Positions 604 through 18,003 of a stretch of 64,000 bases of DNA are shown piece by piece (the first letter of the stretch is position 1; each line of letters opens with the position of its first letter). A program made the position numbers and the translations under genes. This DNA is from Candidatus Poribacteria bacterium (GTDB lineage Bacteria > Poribacteria > WGA-4E > WGA-3G). Below the pieces are notes generated by a model. The model did no database searches. It had not been told where the DNA came from and saw only the letters and a list, made by a program, of their open reading frames with translations. The stretch is from the NCBI GenBank assembly GCA_964291315.2, contig OZ219753.1:1312001-1376000 (forward strand), in the 5' to 3' direction.

Positions 604-2146
604 GCGTGAGCTCATCGACGTTACTGCATGTCTCAACAATGGCTTCTACAAGACTCTCTACTGTGGCTTTCTTTGCTATCACGTCAACCCGCACGTCATG
701 TCTCATTGCTGTCTCTTGCGTTGTGGGACCAATCACGGCGACCTTGACATCAGCGAGCAACACTGCAGGAGCATGTGTAGAGAACATTTCAAGGAAGTTC
801 GTAACCGTTGAAGAACTGGTGAATGTGACGAGATCCACCTTGCCGTTCAAGAGAGCAGCTTCAATTTCGTCCCTGTTTTTATCGCTATCATCTGTCATTT
901 TGACAGTATCGTAGAGCGTGACCTCGTCAACTATTGCTCCCCTCTCACGCAAACCGTCGGGTACGTCCGCAGCGGCGATTTTCGCACGTGGCAGGAGAAT
1001 CCTCTTTCCCTTGACCCCTTCGATTTCAGCAGCGATGGCACTTCCGCGGGAGCAGGACGGAACAAAATCCGGATGAATACCGATGCGGTTCAGCGCGTTG
1101 ACTGTTTTGCCGCCAACCGCACAGACTTTACCCGTGCCGAAGGCACGAGCGTCCTTGCCATCTTCGCGCAAGCGTGCATAGAAGATTTCTACAGCGTTGA
1201 CACTTGTAAAGATAATCCAATCGTATCTTTCCGGGGGAGGTATGTCTACACCGGCAATAGGTTGGATCTGTATTGTGGGGAATTGGGTGACTTCAGCACC
1301 GTTCGCTTCCAAAAGGTCTGCGAATACGCTTGCTTGGGCGCGCGCGCGTGTCACAAGAATCCGTTTGCCGAATAGCGGTTTGGTATCAAACCAACGGAGT
1401 TGCTCACGCAGCCGATTCACTTCACCGATAACGATAACCGCTGGACTTTTCAGTTGTACCTTCTCCACTTTTTTGACAATATCGTCAAGCGTGCCTTGGA
1501 CAACCTGCTGTTGTGGTGTCGTTCCAACATGTACCAAACTCACCGGGGTTTGCGGGGTTCGGCCATGTGTTATGAGTCGCTCGGTAATCTGACGAAGGTG
1601 AGCAACTCCCATGTAGACGATAAGCGTATCTACTGCTGTAGCGATGCCCTTCCAATTAATTTTTGAATCCGGACCTAATGCGGCGGAATGTCCCGTAACG
1701 AACGCTACCGAAGAAGCATAGTCTCGATGTGTGGCCGGAATACCCGCATAGGCAGATGCGGCAATCGCAGAGGTGATACCGGGAACTACCTCAAACGGAA
1801 CGCCTGCCTCAGTGAGAGCAGCGGCTTCTTCACCGCCCCTTCCAAAGATGTAGGGGTCGCCGCCTTTGAGGCGCACAACTACCTTCCCGGCTTTTGCATG
1901 TTCAACGAGCAATTGATTGAGTTCGGTTTGGCGAGTGGTCTGGGTCCTCGGATCCGGGGCTCGAATTTTCTCGGTGTGTGCAGGGCAGTGTTCAAGCAGC
2001 GTATCATTTAGTAGCAGATCGTAGATGACGACATCGGCGCGTTGAAGACATTCCATGCCTTTGAGTGTGATAAGTTTCCTGTCGCCTGGACCTGCCCCTA
2101 CAATGTAAACGAGCCCGGGGTTTGGTCTGCTTGAAGGTACATTCAT
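581..2146 (-). CDS. cobA: Fused uroporphyrinogen-III C-methyltransferase / uroporphyrinogen-III synthase (CobA-HemD)
   Basis: VGAGPGD, RLKGGDP and VVPGITS SUMT motifs, followed by a HemD domain (LFGKRILVTR, FTSSSTV). Confidence 0.95.
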   Translation of the reverse strand: MNVPSSRPNPGLVYIVGAGPGDRKLITLKGMECLQRADVVIYDLLLNDTLLEHCPAHTEKIRAPDPRTQTTRQTELNQLLVEHAKAGKVVVRLKGGDPYIFGRGGEEAAALTEAGVPFEVVPGITSAIAASAYAGIPATHRDYASSVAFVTGHSAALGPDSKINWKGIATAVDTLIVYMGVAHLRQITERLITHGRTPQTPVSLVHVGTTPQQQVVQGTLDDIVKKVEKVQLKSPAVIVIGEVNRLREQLRWFDTKPLFGKRILVTRARAQASVFADLLEANGAEVTQFPTIQIQPIAGVDIPPPERYDWIIFTSVNAVEIFYARLREDGKDARAFGTGKVCAVGGKTVNALNRIGIHPDFVPSCSRGSAIAAEIEGVKGKRILLPRAKIAAADVPDGLRERGAIVDEVTLYDTVKMTDDSDKNRDEIEAALLNGKVDLVTFTSSSTVTNFLEMFSTHAPAVLLADVKVAVIGPTTQETAMRHDVRVDVIAKKATVESLVEAIVETCSNVDELTHERNGNK

Positions 2147-13100: not shown

Positions 13101-14534
13101 GTGGAGATCTATAATTTAACCATCATCGGTGGCGGAAGCGCTGGGCTAGTGCTTGCAGTAGCAGGCGCAAAGTTAGGCAAAAAAACCGCCCTCGTAGAAA
13201 AACACCGCATCGGAGGCGATTGCCTCTGGACCGGGTGCGTACCGTCCAAAGCACTTCTCAAAGCAGCGAAAGTCGCAAATTACATCCGAAATGCAGAAAG
13301 ATACGGCGTTGCTGCCATAGACCCTACGACTACTGCCGCCGATTGGCAGCAGGTGATGACGTATATACAAAGCGCACAACACACCATAGAAGAAGAACAC
13401 GATAACCCCGAACGGTTTCGAGAACTAGGCATCGATGTTATCTTCGGAAAAGGGCATTTTGAATCAGATGACACCTTCGTCGTCGAAGACGCAGAGAACG
13501 GCATGACACGTACCCTCAAAAGCAAAAAGTTTGTGATTAGCACCGGCTCTCGCCCACTCGTCCCGCCAATACCCGGATTGAACAGTTGTGAGTATCTCGA
13601 TAGCGAAACAGTTTGGGAATTAGATGAACGCCCGAATCGGATGCTCGTTGTCGGCGCAGGGCCGATCGGTGTCGAACTTGGACAAGCTTTTCATCGCCTC
13701 GGCGCTGATGTAACAATAGCACAACGCAGCAGCCGCATCTTGACAAAGGAGGACGCGGAGGTCTCTGAACAGATGCTACGCTACCTTCGAGCAGACGGCC
13801 TCACTATCCGACTCAACACAAATATAACGGAGGTTAGGCAAAACGGAGAAGGCACAAAGGTGATGCTCACCAGTCCGGAGGAAGGCAGTGTAGAACAGAC
13901 ATTCGATAAAATTCTAATCGCTGCAGGACGTGCACCAAACGTTGAGGACTTAGAACTTGACAGAATCGGCGTACGGTTAGGCAAACGCGGGATAGAAGTG
14001 AATAGTAGACTGCAGACGAGCGTTAAAAATATCTATGCCGCCGGTGATGTAATTGGACACTATTTGTTCACGCATGTTGCAGCGTTCCAAGCACAACTAC
14101 TCCTCCGAAACATCTTCTTTCCGTTCGCCAGAGCGATTAACTATGCAGTTGTACCCTGGACGACTTTCTCTGATCCAGAAGTGGCCCGCTGTGGTTTAAC
14201 AGAGGCAGAAGCACGTGAGAAACATGGCGACATCGACGTTTTTACGCTCAACCAAGCAGACGTTGACAGAGCCGTCGCTGAAGGGGAAACACAAGGCTTC
14301 ACGAAGGTGATCGCGAGTCGCTGGCGCGGAAAGATATTAGGGGTTCATATTGTCGGCACCAATGCCGGCGAGGTTATCCACGAGTACGTTTTGGCGATGC
14401 AAACAGGAACCACTTTGAGAAAATTAAGTCGTATGATCCACGTCTACCCCACATTTTCTAGCAGCGCGTGGCGTATCGCAGGCAAATGGTTCTCCGAAGG
14501 AACGTTGATTCAAACGCTGCGAAAATTGTTCTAA
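13101..14534 (+). CDS. Pyridine nucleotide-disulfide oxidoreductase (mercuric reductase/dihydrolipoamide dehydrogenase-like)
   Basis: GGGSAG, redox pair GGDCLWTGCVPSK, GAGPIG and AAGD motifs. No C-terminal Cys-Cys, so not a true MerA. Confidence 0.85.
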   Translation: MEIYNLTIIGGGSAGLVLAVAGAKLGKKTALVEKHRIGGDCLWTGCVPSKALLKAAKVANYIRNAERYGVAAIDPTTTAADWQQVMTYIQSAQHTIEEEHDNPERFRELGIDVIFGKGHFESDDTFVVEDAENGMTRTLKSKKFVISTGSRPLVPPIPGLNSCEYLDSETVWELDERPNRMLVVGAGPIGVELGQAFHRLGADVTIAQRSSRILTKEDAEVSEQMLRYLRADGLTIRLNTNITEVRQNGEGTKVMLTSPEEGSVEQTFDKILIAAGRAPNVEDLELDRIGVRLGKRGIEVNSRLQTSVKNIYAAGDVIGHYLFTHVAAFQAQLLLRNIFFPFARAINYAVVPWTTFSDPEVARCGLTEAEAREKHGDIDVFTLNQADVDRAVAEGETQGFTKVIASRWRGKILGVHIVGTNAGEVIHEYVLAMQTGTTLRKLSRMIHVYPTFSSSAWRIAGKWFSEGTLIQTLRKLF

Positions 14535-14570
14535 TCGGATTAAGTGGTCACTATTCATTATCCATCAAAG

Positions 14571-14698
14571 AAAAAAAGCCGGAAACCATGTTCCCCGTTA
14601 GTTCAAAACGGCTCAGAGTCCTAACCTAACTCACGCAACAGAGGTTTGACAGCTGCACCTTTTAGGAATATGGCTCCAGCTTGCCTAAGGAGGCTCAC
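14571..14698 (-). ncRNA. Candidate sigma54-dependent structured small RNA (~128 nt)
   Basis: Sigma54 promoter directly upstream; long 5'/3' closing stem with G-U pairs that favour the minus strand; three internal arms; U7 tail; no ORF in the track. Confidence 0.65.
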
Positions 14699-14708
14699 GG
14701 AAAAATAA

Positions 14709-14724
14709 AGCAAATGTCGTGCCA
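14709..14724 (-). promoter_or_regulatory. Sigma54 (-24/-12) promoter
   Basis: Minus strand TGGCACGACATTTGCT matches TGGCACG-N4-TTGCW exactly. Confidence 0.8.
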
Positions 14725-14772
14725 CCCCAAAATAACTATTTTGAGCGATTTACCGGATAAAAGTGCCTGTTT

Positions 14773-14791
14773 TTCGAACAAGTTCGAACAA
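14773..14791. promoter_or_regulatory. Candidate upstream activator site for a sigma54 enhancer-binding protein
   Basis: Palindrome TTCGAAC-AA-GTTCGAA, also a TTCGAACAA direct repeat with 10-bp period, 75-93 bp upstream of the predicted TSS. Confidence 0.4.
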
Positions 14792-14821
14792 ATATGACTA
14801 AAAAATAGGCAGCTGTCTGCT

Positions 14822-16279
14822 TTAACCCTTCACAACCCCGACAGGGCGGAGGCGCGCTACACGACGCGAGAGACCGGCTTCGTCAACAACGCGAACCACT
14901 TCATCGACATCCTTGTATGCTTCTGGGACTTCTTCCTGAAGCGTGCGCCTGCCTTCAGCGCGCACATAGATACCTTGCGCCTCCAAATCCTTCTGAATGG
15001 AACGACCCTTTGTCAACGCGATCGCCTTTCGCCGGGAGAGAACTCTGCCCGCACCGTGACAGGTTGTCCCCCACGTCTCTGCCATCGCGCCGGGCTTACC
15101 GACAAGCACATAAGAGGCAGTGCCCATATCGCCAGGAATCAGAACAGGTTGTCCAATTTTCTGGTATTTTTCGGGTATCTCTGGATGCCCCGCCGGAAAT
15201 GCACGCGTTGCCCCTTTGCGATGGATAAATAACTCCCGTTCTTCTCCATCTACCGTGTGTTTTTCAAACTTCCCAATATTGTGGGCTACATCGTAGACCA
15301 GCTCTAAACCGAGCTCATCCGCTGTCGTTCCGAAAAACTGCATGAAGGTCTGGCGCACAAGGTGCATGATGCACTGCCGATTGTTCCATGCATAGTTCGC
15401 ACCACACGCCATCGCAGCGATGTAGTCTTGTCCCTCAGGTGAATTGATTGGCGCTGAGGCAAGCTGCCGGTCGGGGAGAGTGATGCCGTATCTTTCAGCA
15501 ACTTTAATCCAGCTTTTAACGTGTTCATCGCAAACCTGGTAACCGAAGCCACGCGAACCGGTATGAATCATCACACAGATGCTGCCCTCGCTGAGCCCCA
15601 TCGCGTTAGCAGCTTCTCGGTAAAAAACGCGATCCACCGCTTGCACTTCAAGAAAGTGGTTACCCGACCCGAGCGTTCCGAGCTGATTCTTACCACGTTC
15701 TAAGGCGCGCCGGCTCGCAGCAGCGGCATCGGCGTGGTCTAGAAAACCTGTCGCCTCGGTAAAGTCGAGGTCACCGGCGTGTCCGTATTCACGCTCGATC
15801 GCCCACAGCGCACCTTTCTCTAACATCTGTCGTTCTTCTTGAAGGGTGAGCCGAATGTTGCCGCTTGAACCCACACCACACGGGATATTCTCAAACAGCT
15901 TGCCGACGAGTTCCCCGCGCTTCCCTTCAAGCTGCGAAACATCAAGATTCGTTCGAATGAGTCGAACCCCGCAGTTGATGTCATACCCAATCCCGCCCGG
16001 AGAGACCACACCATCCGCTTGAGGATCTGTGGCAGCGACACCGCCGATAACGAACCCGTAACCCCAGTGCAAATCTGGCATCGCAAGCGAATGCTTGACA
16101 ATACCCGGGAGATGCGCAACGTTCGCAACCTGCTGCAACGCCTCGTCACTTTTTGCATGCTCAAGAAGCTTCTCGTTCGCATAGACAATACCATCAACCC
16201 GCATGCCCTTCATGTAGCTCTTCGGGATACGCCAACGGTATTCGTCCAGCTTTTGGAGTGTTATGTTTTGTTGTGTCAT
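14822..16279 (-). CDS. rtcB: RtcB RNA 3'-phosphate/5'-OH ligase (archaeal/eukaryote-like long form)
   Basis: MPDLHWGYGF, GYDINCG, GTLGSGNHFLE, YDVAHN, HRKGATR and TCHGAGR motifs. Confidence 0.96.
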   Translation of the reverse strand: MTQQNITLQKLDEYRWRIPKSYMKGMRVDGIVYANEKLLEHAKSDEALQQVANVAHLPGIVKHSLAMPDLHWGYGFVIGGVAATDPQADGVVSPGGIGYDINCGVRLIRTNLDVSQLEGKRGELVGKLFENIPCGVGSSGNIRLTLQEERQMLEKGALWAIEREYGHAGDLDFTEATGFLDHADAAAASRRALERGKNQLGTLGSGNHFLEVQAVDRVFYREAANAMGLSEGSICVMIHTGSRGFGYQVCDEHVKSWIKVAERYGITLPDRQLASAPINSPEGQDYIAAMACGANYAWNNRQCIMHLVRQTFMQFFGTTADELGLELVYDVAHNIGKFEKHTVDGEERELFIHRKGATRAFPAGHPEIPEKYQKIGQPVLIPGDMGTASYVLVGKPGAMAETWGTTCHGAGRVLSRRKAIALTKGRSIQKDLEAQGIYVRAEGRRTLQEEVPEAYKDVDEVVRVVDEAGLSRRVARLRPVGVVKG

Positions 16280-16386
16280 ACCGCTATTATACAATATTTC
16301 TCACTATTAAGGTAACACATTCGCGTGAATAGCAGAATTACCTAGAAACAAATCAGTATTCAGTATAGCGAGGCGGATAAAAAAAC

Positions 16387-16416
16387 TTGACACCGGCTGT
16401 CCATATTTCCTACAAT
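16387..16416 (+). promoter_or_regulatory. Sigma70-type promoter upstream of the methyltransferase gene
   Basis: TTGACA-N18-TACAAT. Confidence 0.5.
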
Positions 16417-16570
16417 TGACAGACAGCTGATGCTAACTAAAAAATGGATACCCTAACTTGGATTAAAAGTATAACAAGGATCCTTAATTTTTGCGAAGAA
16501 ATTTGAGACGACGCTTTAAATAGGACAATAGCTTTCACATTTGCTACAGATGCCCGGGACCTAAAAACAG

Positions 16571-18003
16571 ATGACTCTATCGAATAGGACATTAATACGC
16601 GGCGATAATCTACAGGCAATGCGGGAGTTCTCCGATATTTGTATCGACTTGATCGCTACCGACCCGCCCTTCAACTCCAAACGAGACTACTTCTTGCCAT
16701 ACAGAGCCGAGAAAGGTCAAAAATCTGATGCCCTCGTCAAAGCGTTTTCAGATACATGGACATGGGGATCGGAAGCAGAGAGCACCTATCAAGAACTACT
16801 CATCGATGCCGAGGAACAGGTCAGCAGCACGATTCAAGGCCTACGCCAATGCCTCAACGAAATACCTATGATGGCATACCTAGTTATGATGACGGTACGC
16901 ATTGTAGAAATGCATCGCATTCTCAAGGAAACCGGCAGTCTTTACCTGCATTGTGATCCTACGGCAAGCCACTACCTCAAAATCATACTCGATGCCGTGT
17001 TCGGTACACAGAATTTTAAAAATGAAATTGTGTGGCATTACAAACGGTGGACAGCCGCTTCTAGACATTTTCAAAAAATGCACGATGTGATCTTCTGGTA
17101 TTCTAAAACGGACGCTCATACCTTTACACAACCGCTGCAACCTTTTTCTGATGAATCATATATCGAAAACACAGTGCGCGGTTTTGTCGACGGTAAACTG
17201 GTCCGATTAAAGCACAAAGACGGCAACTACGTCTTGCGCAAAACCCAAAAAGAGGGGTCTTGATGCACGATGTCTGGCATGACATCAACTTTATCCCGCC
17301 CTCAAGCACGGAACGGGCAGGCTACCCTACACAGAAACCTGTCGAACTTTACAAACGCATTATACAAGCGTCCTCAAATGCGGGTGATCGGGTCTTAGAC
17401 CCATTTACAGGTTGCGGGACAACGGCCATCGCAGCAGAAAGCTTGAATCGTCAATGGATAGGTATAGACCGCACCTACCTTGCCGTCGGGACTGTCGCCC
17501 AACAAATAGAGAAATACTTTCCGCACCTCCGTGACGACATCACTATTACCGGAACACCTGAAAACGCCCCTCAAGCGTTAGACCTAGCACACAGAAACCC
17601 ACAAGACTTCGCGGAATGGATTGTCACGCACGTATTGAAATTTAAATCGAATGCTAAGAAAGGTGGCGATGGCGGTATAGACGGTATCCTAAGATTCCCA
17701 ATCGGTAAAGTCAACGGGAGACGAGCGTTCGGGAAAGCGGTGGCACAAGTCAAGGGCGGTCAATACACGCTTGGAGATCTCCGCGATTTTAGAACAGCTA
17801 TGCGAAATCAAGAAGCTGAATTAGGAGTCTTTGTCGCTACAACACCGCCCACGCGCGGCATGAAACAGGAAATCGCACGCGCAGGACGCTATAAGCATCC
17901 TAAATATAAAATGGAAATACCGAGCTTGCAACACTATCAGATACAAGACTATTTCACCGGTAAACTGCCGCAATTGCCTCACGCTGAGAGGAACCTCTTA
18001 TAG
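16571..18003 (+). pseudogene. N4/N6 DNA methyltransferase fused to an Mrr-like endonuclease domain, frameshifted (ORFs 16571-17263 and 17260-18003)
   Basis: DPPF (motif IV) in part 1; YPTQKP, DPFTGCGTT (motif I) and GGDGGIDG...AQVKGG in part 2. One extra G at 17254-17257 restores ...KEGVLMHDVW. Confidence 0.8.

Follow-up and report, generated by a model that had tools for sequence, protein, structure and literature searches.

A predicted small RNA gene downstream of rtcB

We analyzed a 64,000-nucleotide (nt) stretch of a Candidatus Poribacteria genome (contig OZ219753.1; hereafter the window) in which a predicted small RNA (sRNA) gene lies downstream of rtcB. All features of the sRNA locus are on the minus strand, and positions refer to the window. 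The rtcB gene (14822–16294; Pfam RtcB, E 1.9e-173) is separated from the sRNA by a 126-nt spacer that contains TGCCTATTTTTT (14811–14800) and its inverted partner AAAAACAGGCA (14774–14764). These are the left and right halves of an inverted repeat that represents a candidate activator site, of the kind bound by bacterial enhancer-binding proteins (bEBPs), and they are followed by a degenerate GGCAAT-N11-ATTGCC dyad, which in this copy reads GGCAC..TCGC (14767–14745). A sigma-54 (−24/−12) promoter of exact consensus, TGGCACGACATTTGCT, occupies 14724–14709, and the spacing from its −12 element places the predicted transcript start at G14698. From there the predicted sRNA runs for 128 nt to the end of a U-tract (14698–14571). 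It opens with a short hairpin (H1; GCCU-CCUU-AGGC, 14694–14683) that holds the anti-Shine-Dalgarno (anti-SD) word CCUCCUU (14693–14687), and then enters a closing stem of 17 pairs (P1), with GCUGGAGCCAUAUUCC(U) as its 5′ strand (14680–14664) and GGAACAUGGUUUCCGGC as its 3′ strand (14594–14578). A terminator scan also detected a local hairpin and T-run at the latter, and the seven U residues that follow (14577–14571) would serve as the tail of an intrinsic terminator. Enclosed by P1 are an inner hairpin (H2; GCAGC...GUUGC, 14656–14635) and an internal element, GUUAGGUUAGGACUCUGA (14630–14613), which is conserved in sequence among relatives with the consensus GUUAGGUUAGAAUCCCUGA.

No open reading frame (ORF) of at least 40 amino acids (aa) is present on the minus strand between 14571 and 14698. 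The neighboring gene on the far side encodes a FAD-dependent pyridine-nucleotide-disulfide oxidoreductase (13101–14534, plus strand); it is convergent with the sRNA, and its stop codon lies 37 nt from the sRNA end. A preliminary description, made from the window alone, had delineated the sigma-54 site, start, first hairpin, closing stem, and U7 tract as one ORF-free unit, and as a reading of the sequence its coordinates and motifs proved right.

Taken alone, the features of the window are weak evidence and fall within chance. The exact motif TGGCAC-N5-TTGC occurs once in the window, and with up to one mismatch it occurs three times, versus 4.65 expected from shuffles. Genome-wide there are 33 TGGCAY-N5-TTGCW sites, of which chance would account for an estimated 8 or so. 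The minimum free energy of the RNA is −42.3 kcal/mol (z −1.66), and 11 of 200 shuffled sequences fold as well. The locus is lifted above chance because its promoter, 5′ hairpin, closing stem, and U-tract are conserved in relatives.

Conservation of the RNA and its promoter in one Poribacteria family

Homologues of the sRNA were found by several routes. With blastn, clear homologues of 68–78% identity were present in 10 of 40 relatives; two additional short matches (L012, L013) look like chance. The exact 5′-end pattern, searched across bacteria and archaea with one genome per species, returned 41 stretches. Poribacteria, Candidatus or uncultured, are named in the titles of 38 of them, and one titled “uncultured bacterium” is a true homologue; matches in Chryseolinea and Actinomycetota, which have none of the other features, were rejected as chance. 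A covariance model (R1) built from 11 sequences matched the window at 14568–14699 (minus strand, 121.8 bits) and gave exactly one match per genome in 92 of the 103 genomes of the window’s family (f1). By genus, these comprise 50 of 59 genomes in g1, 38 of 38 in g9, 2 of 2 in g10, 2 of 3 in g12, and 0 of 1 in g11. R1 had no match in the 47 genomes of the order’s three other families (f2–f4). We also ran a promoter-plus-seed pattern over 176 genomes of the phylum, with the reversed pattern as a control. The forward pattern matched once per genome in 91 of 111 f1 genomes and once in family f9; nine other families, represented by 63 genomes, gave no match. The reversed pattern was absent from all 176. 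Homologues measure 77–154 nt (median 133). Members from g10 and g12 are short (77–102 nt), keeping promoter, H1, and P1 with little or nothing between the stems, and all of these except L122 also keep the U-tail. The window’s genome carries a single copy.

Structural conservation was assessed in a model-fitted alignment (A3) of 100 rows, 83 of them distinct, from which copies in L003, L005, and L008 were left out by choice. An alignment of this type leans towards its own model; a sequence-only MAFFT alignment of 22 diverse members served as a check. Within A3, 94.6% of P1 cells are paired and both sides have changed at 12 of the 17 pairs, with exchanges such as C-G (46) to U-A (33), U-A (32) to C-G (29) or U-G (18), and U-A (45) to C-G (26). 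H1 is paired in 98.5% of cells. Its closing pair is G·U in 76 rows, A-U in two, and G-C in one, and its fourth pair is U·G in 46 rows and U-A in 37. H2, as fitted to the model, has five pairs with 87.6% of cells paired and both-side changes at all five. For the whole structure, none of 500 shuffles reached the observed values, and sliding the pairing partners by one to three columns left only 32–49% paired. RNAalifold, applied to the 22-sequence MAFFT alignment, again yielded H1 together with the outer portion of P1; of 14 pairs in this fold, 5 are compensatory. The predicted RNA is thus a short 5′ hairpin followed by a long stem around a variable core. All-against-all column covariation was swamped by clade-specific transitions and was dropped.

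The window copy is rather divergent, scoring 121.8 bits against 135–166 for the top 43 of the 100 rows, and folding of its own sequence shifts the H2 pairing relative to the family, most members of which have UUGCAA-N7-UUGCA. Both MAFFT and the model misplace a 1-nt difference in loop length in the inner-arm region. A further core stem, P2 (GGU/ACC), is paired in 68.8% of cells. Of three arms drawn in the preliminary description, GAGUU/GACUC and CCGUU/AACGG exist only in this genome’s copy, and AGGU/ACCU is paired in 69.4% of cells; its term “cloverleaf-like” therefore survives loosely, for a closing stem around two family-wide hairpins.

The internal element GUUAGGUUAGAAUCCCUGA is 19 nt long and is conserved in g1, g9, and one g10 member; neither L122 nor the short g12 forms have it. 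It can form either of two hairpins, UUAGG/CCUGA (H3a, 86.7% paired) or AGGUU/AACCU (H3b, 74.2% paired), and covariation exceeds that of shuffles for neither (57/79 distinct segments). Its loop, closed by a G-C pair, is UUAGAAU, with UUGAAAU or UUAAAAU in other clades. The conserved UUAGA fits the T-loop pentanucleotide UUNRA. The clade of the window’s genome has a loop shorter by one base (UUAGGAC), which departs from this motif. One homologue (L046:7501–7654, plus strand) bears a tandem duplication of about 23 nt over this element, with UUAGGUUAGCAUCUCUGAACCUU present twice.

Promoter, seed, and tail were counted over 93 distinct homologous loci. A strict TGGCAY-N5-TTGC is found in 91, and each of the remaining two has one mismatch. 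CCUCCUU is kept in 92, and a run of at least four T residues ends the RNA at the same place in 88. The distance from TTGC to YCTCCTT is 15–16 nt in 83 of the 91 loci with a strict promoter, and the anti-SD word therefore falls approximately 4–6 nt after the expected start. Upstream, the family shares an inverted repeat of the form TGYCTATTTTTT ... AAAAAYAGRCA, together with the GGCAAT-N11-ATTGCC dyad. By regular expression, the left half of the repeat is found in 71 of 93 loci and the right half in 89, and the spacing between halves clusters at 26–29 or 37–38 nt, two classes about one helical turn apart. Because the combination of this repeat with a sigma-54 site is unique in its own genome, matching only at the sRNA locus, the activator site appears dedicated to the sRNA gene. 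A palindrome noted earlier as lying at enhancer distance (TTCGAAC-TT-GTTCGAA, 14788–14773) lacks conservation, its overlap with the family-wide repeat being limited to the right edge.

The genome encodes sigma-54 (rpoN), and an exact promoter consensus, rpoN, and an upstream repeat in helical-turn spacing classes together point to a sigma-54-dependent gene. There are eight strong sigma-54 activator genes in the genome and none near the locus: five encode REC-AAA-HTH_8 proteins, two encode AAA-HTH_8 proteins without a receiver domain, and one lacks the helix-turn-helix (HTH). Separately, three near-identical sigma-54 promoters (GGGCATTGGCACGAAACTTGCTATATA...GAGGAGGTA) lie within 12 kb of one another outside the window (G000:C4, approximately 1675976, 1683860, and 1687598, minus strand), surrounding an activator gene without a DNA-binding HTH (C4:1684124–1685383).

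On this evidence, we consider it very probable that the locus is a real sRNA gene of the sigma-54 type. It appears to be an independent gene, present in one copy per genome and specific to a single family of Candidatus Poribacteria, which are sponge symbionts. We did not find a prior description of a Poribacteria regulatory RNA in the literature, subscription journals and supplementary files being outside the scope of that search. The sRNA family is new, and the kind of RNA it represents is already known.

A proposed model of ribosome-binding site masking and its closest analogue

The account that we favor, with moderate confidence once its mechanism is included, is that of a trans-acting sRNA that masks ribosome-binding sites. 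RNA polymerase carrying sigma-54 would start at about 14698, activated by an enhancer-binding protein acting from the conserved upstream inverted repeat, and would stop at the long closing stem and U-tract. The 5′ CCUCCUU, identical to the anti-SD core, would then pair with ribosome-binding sites of the AAGGAGG type on a number of mRNAs, and this pairing, probably assisted by Hfq, would block translation for as long as the sigma-54 signal is on. We infer repression through SD pairing because of the analogy described below, the near-invariance of the 5′ word (92 of 93 loci), the presence of an hfq gene (31.5 bits), and the absence of a detectable CsrA gene in the window’s own genome. The unit’s boundaries, seed, and U-tail are conserved, as would suit a possible Hfq-type sRNA; the seed, however, lies partly in a stem, and the terminator is a long-range helix. 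Even the short g10 and g12 forms, whose inter-stem core has nearly disappeared, retain CCUCCUU. The preliminary description had raised base pairing at ribosome-binding sites as one of two options; the conserved promoter, 5′ word, and terminator, the hfq gene, and a known analogue all fit that option, which nonetheless stays at the level of inference.

The closest known analogue is MmgR of Sinorhizobium meliloti and other Alphaproteobacteria (Rfam suhB, RF00519), although the Poribacteria RNA would function like MmgR without being a member of that family. MmgR is described as a 77-nt, Hfq-dependent alpha-r8 sRNA that folds into three stem-loops, the first of which displays an anti-SD motif in its loop; NtrC induces it, AniA represses it, and both RpoD and RpoN are tabulated for it (PMC7143759). 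It lowers PhaP1/2 protein without changing mRNA levels (PMC8401924), and phaP1 and phaP2 are tabulated as targets with translation inhibition as the mechanism (PMC9170634, Table 1).

The Poribacteria RNA resembles MmgR in being a small RNA with an anti-SD word in the first hairpin, as RF00519 has, and a Rho-independent terminator; CCUCCUU extends across both stem and loop of H1, and trans action would be a further likeness. A sigma-54 promoter, hfq, and the five REC-AAA-HTH_8 activators are found here and may correspond to the NtrC and Hfq dependence of MmgR. The differences are several. The gathering score of RF00519 (41 bits) is not reached, and there is no match at E ≤ 10 over 14300–15000 or at the sRNA in four short forms. 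The RNA is 128 nt rather than 77 nt, places H1 before a long closing stem around inner hairpins instead of forming three consecutive stem-loops, and comes from a different phylum. It lacks a second motif of the UUUCCUCCCU type, a 10-mer. Control also differs: one report places a dyad between the −35 and −10 boxes of mmgR (PMC8401924), whereas the promoter here is of the sigma-54 type.

We scanned metagenome contigs for a sigma-54 promoter followed at 13–19 nt by CCTCCTTRGG and obtained 109 stretches, the best 80 of which were taken as loci. Two of these 80 are R1 homologues. The largest coherent group comes from soil (at least 22 of the 80 by regular expression and about a dozen more by eye) and consists of RNAs of approximately 70 nt in which a GCCCUCCUUGGGC hairpin is joined by another CCUCC stretch and a terminator. 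Of seven loci compared with Rfam, three (L150, L165, L174) pass the RF00519 gathering score. Twelve other loci share one identical sequence after the seed, and many of the loci with that sequence are human-gut contigs; it looks like coding sequence and a chance match.

The promoter and the GCCCUCCUUGGGC hairpin that follows it in the MmgR-type metagenome RNAs form nearly the same 5′ module as the Poribacteria GCCUCCUU(A/G)GG(C/U). Common descent and convergence may each account for this, and both are compatible with the data. The near-identity suggests that sigma-54 control of an anti-SD hairpin is a recurring design. The suhB/MmgR-type soil RNAs (L147, L150, L163, L165, L166, L174, L186, and about 25 more) all carry a full TGGCAY-N5-TTGC consensus about 13 nt upstream. 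Published reviews, by comparison, mention RpoN for mmgR only in tabulated form, and a direct sigma-54 dependence of this family may be under-appreciated.

Two other groups of sRNAs invite comparison. Vibrio Qrr1-5, with LuxO, and enterobacterial GlmY, with GlrR, are sigma-54-dependent sRNAs in which a −24/−12 promoter and upstream activator sites drive a short, Hfq-type regulatory RNA, an arrangement predicted here as well. Unlike Qrr and GlmY, the Poribacteria RNA is single copy and has an anti-SD seed rather than a target-specific one, and it has no sequence or structural similarity to them (Rfam negative). The alphaproteobacterial CcsR “cuckoo” RNAs and staphylococcal RsaE are C-rich sRNAs with anti-SD seeds, in which a CCUCC or UCCC word in or beside a hairpin loop pairs with SD regions; compared by description and by negative Rfam scans, they differ in promoter, size, and fold.

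A number of observations weigh against the masking model. Part of the anti-SD word is enclosed in H1, which has four base pairs and a loop of 4 nt and is itself conserved, so that CCUCCUU may be recognized as structure and not as a freely available seed. An anti-SD word of 7 nt is also unspecific: of the 6890 GGAGG sites in the genome, 1060 precede ORFs of 80 codons or more. ORF starts are not enriched for longer seed matches relative to other GGAGG sites in the same genome, and the top target candidates (two FGE-sulfatase paralogues, a TonB receptor, NuoM, COX2, and others) share no common function. For a terminator and Hfq module, a long-range closing stem is unusual, and the second most conserved element, at 14613–14630, is without a role in the model. 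Among 12 genomes profiled, including four sRNA-negative members of f1, no activator gene follows the presence or absence of the sRNA. Six of the seven HTH-bearing activators have orthologues in sRNA-negative genomes as well, and the seventh (L259) has no close orthologue in the genomes compared. The sole f1-restricted activator (L256; AAA-linker-HTH_8, no receiver domain) is yet kept in the four sRNA-negative f1 genomes. Finally, the sRNA can be lost and is dispensable, because at least two genomes of the window’s genus that are complete in a single contig (G109, G133) have no match to it anywhere.

As a lead only, the ribosome-binding sites with the longest complementarity to H1 (11–12 nt) belong to the two FGE-sulfatase paralogues, proteins of approximately 1170–1190 aa with three FGE-sulfatase (SUMF1-like) domains each (G000:C4:560053–563565 and C4:2136667–2140233).

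What the locus offers is a well-delimited regulatory unit from uncultured sponge symbionts that is testable in heterologous hosts. It combines an apparently dedicated activator site with a textbook sigma-54 promoter, an RNA that covaries, and an invariant seed, and about 90 species-level genomes carry it. The family would be a useful addition to Rfam for annotating Poribacteria genomes. It opens no new kind of biology.

Alternative readings and the gene neighborhood

The alternative that fares best, although we consider it rather improbable, is a structured RNA that binds a protein or the ribosome, with H1, which resembles the 3′ tail of 16S rRNA, and the internal element as its recognition sites. 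Such an RNA could titrate or guide a protein or compete globally for SD sequences, instead of controlling a small number of mRNAs through specific pairing. It would explain why H1 is conserved both as a hairpin and as a sequence, and why GUUAGGUUAGAAUCCCUGA is conserved without covariation, as sites of protein or tertiary contact often are; the low specificity of a 7-nt seed, the tandem duplication of the element in L046, and the fit of the UUAGA loop to the UUNRA T-loop motif point the same way. Against it, there is no array of repeated motifs as in CsrB or 6S-type sponges, CsrA was not found in the genome, and the neighboring genes encode no candidate partner. Promoter, H1, and P1 also persist in L122 and the short g12 forms, from which the internal element is missing.

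A broader form of this idea, which we regard as speculative and unlikely, is that a compact three-way-junction RNA displays a copy of the 16S anti-SD tail and, under a sigma-54 signal, competes globally for SD sequences or for some factor recognizing the 3′ end of 16S rRNA, thereby throttling translation; the cassette would be old or repeatedly invented. If this were true, a “sigma-54 promoter + GCC(C)UCCUUGGG hairpin” cassette, as found in MmgR and in the L135 leader described below, would be a module from which sRNAs arise.

Equally doubtful is a cis-acting element, either an antisense or convergent partner of the oxidoreductase gene or a 5′ leader or attenuator of downstream genes. In favor of a cis role, 23 loci out of 40 in g9/g10/g12 have the convergent oxidoreductase gene within 200 nt, and 35 have it at some point in the available flank. 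In g1-type loci, where the sRNA is fully conserved, it lies within 200 nt in only 6 of 44. As for a leader, a T-run ends the RNA in 88 of 93 loci, and the downstream gene is either convergent or has a sigma-70-like promoter of its own (TTGACA/TATAAT-like); the same-strand genes there differ between genomes. The 5′ leader reading was rejected on account of these separate promoters.

One element does have the layout of a leader. In the single genome G168, of family f9, locus L135 (approximately 1500–1760, minus strand) carries the promoter, a CCUCCUU hairpin, and a GGGAGCCA/UGGCUUUCC stem without a U-tract, ahead of a signal-peptide ORF with its own SD sequence, AGGGAG, which could pair with the 5′ word. 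R1 does not score L135 at E ≤ 1. From its sequence, this element may be a cis-acting relative or a precursor of the sRNA.

A tRNA-like or Y-RNA-like RNA acting with RtcB in RNA repair, the other option of the preliminary description, is largely refuted, and we give it very little credence. Bacterial Y RNAs (YrlA/YrlB) sit in the rsr-yrlBA-rtcBA operon of Salmonella and Deinococcus. The locus shares with them an rtcB neighbor, here 126 nt upstream on the same strand, sigma-54 control in the region, and a long, bulged stem formed by both ends of the RNA and enclosing hairpins; one loop also resembles a T-loop. Other features set it apart. ARAGORN finds no tRNA, tRNA-like domain, or transfer-messenger RNA in the window, and a hairpin precedes the stem. 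Rfam, a match in which could have assigned the RNA to a described family, gives none in the window at gathering score, none at E ≤ 10 over 14300–15000, and none at the sRNA of seven homologues (L111, L115, L116, and L122 at E ≤ 10; L135, L148, and L225 at gathering score). Neither TROVE/Ro60 (PF05731) nor RtcR (PF06956) is found in the 95.2%-complete genome, in searches whose controls recovered Ro60 from Deinococcus and Bacteroides and RtcR from E. coli; of the genes that the preliminary description had proposed to look for, only rpoN was found. The neighborhood contains no RtcA, archease, or RtcR gene, and no TGGCAC-N5-TTGC with up to one mismatch lies upstream of rtcB (16295–16570).

Position next to rtcB likewise fails to hold across the family. 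Where the flanking sequence is long enough to judge, 46 of 47 g1-type loci have rtcB no more than 1200 nt upstream, against only 11 of 38 g9/g10/g12 loci; the remainder of the latter have purC or an unknown 950-aa gene in its place. In G109 and G133, conversely, rtcB is kept without the sRNA, and other genes follow it directly. The location “immediately downstream of rtcB” given in the preliminary description is thus accurate for this genome and does not extend to the family. The gene order GFO/IDH/MocA oxidoreductase (c8), rtcB, and the RNA on one strand, facing the FAD-dependent oxidoreductase and an amidohydrolase on the other, looks ancestral. Because the linkage to rtcB is variable and the insertions downstream are varied, we take the neighborhood to be an inherited position and not an operon; the proposed link to RNA repair does not hold.

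Least probable of all is that the locus acts only as DNA, as a conserved regulatory or recombination site from which no stable RNA is made: the site does border a variable gene region in g1, yet compensatory changes on one strand that keep Watson-Crick or G·U pairs, a fixed distance to the promoter, and the U-tract indicate selection on an RNA.

The variable region begins after the sRNA terminator in g1 loci (for example L024, L026, L045, L025, and L028). Genes found there encode a type ISP restriction-modification enzyme, Kelch-repeat proteins, PD40 beta-propellers, a fusion of an extracytoplasmic-function (ECF) sigma factor with BNR repeats, and Laminin_G_3 proteins. The region is an insertion hot spot of the kind found beside tRNA genes, with no integrase among the proteins scanned. 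In the window, beyond rtcB, an N6/N4 DNA methylase (PF01555) is split across two overlapping plus-strand ORFs, with profile positions 1–119 in the first (16571–17263) and 141–211 in the second (17260–18003). The second ORF runs on into a Mrr_cat/NA-iREase1 nuclease-like domain, and the pair (16571–18003) represents a frameshifted or two-part methylase-nuclease gene.

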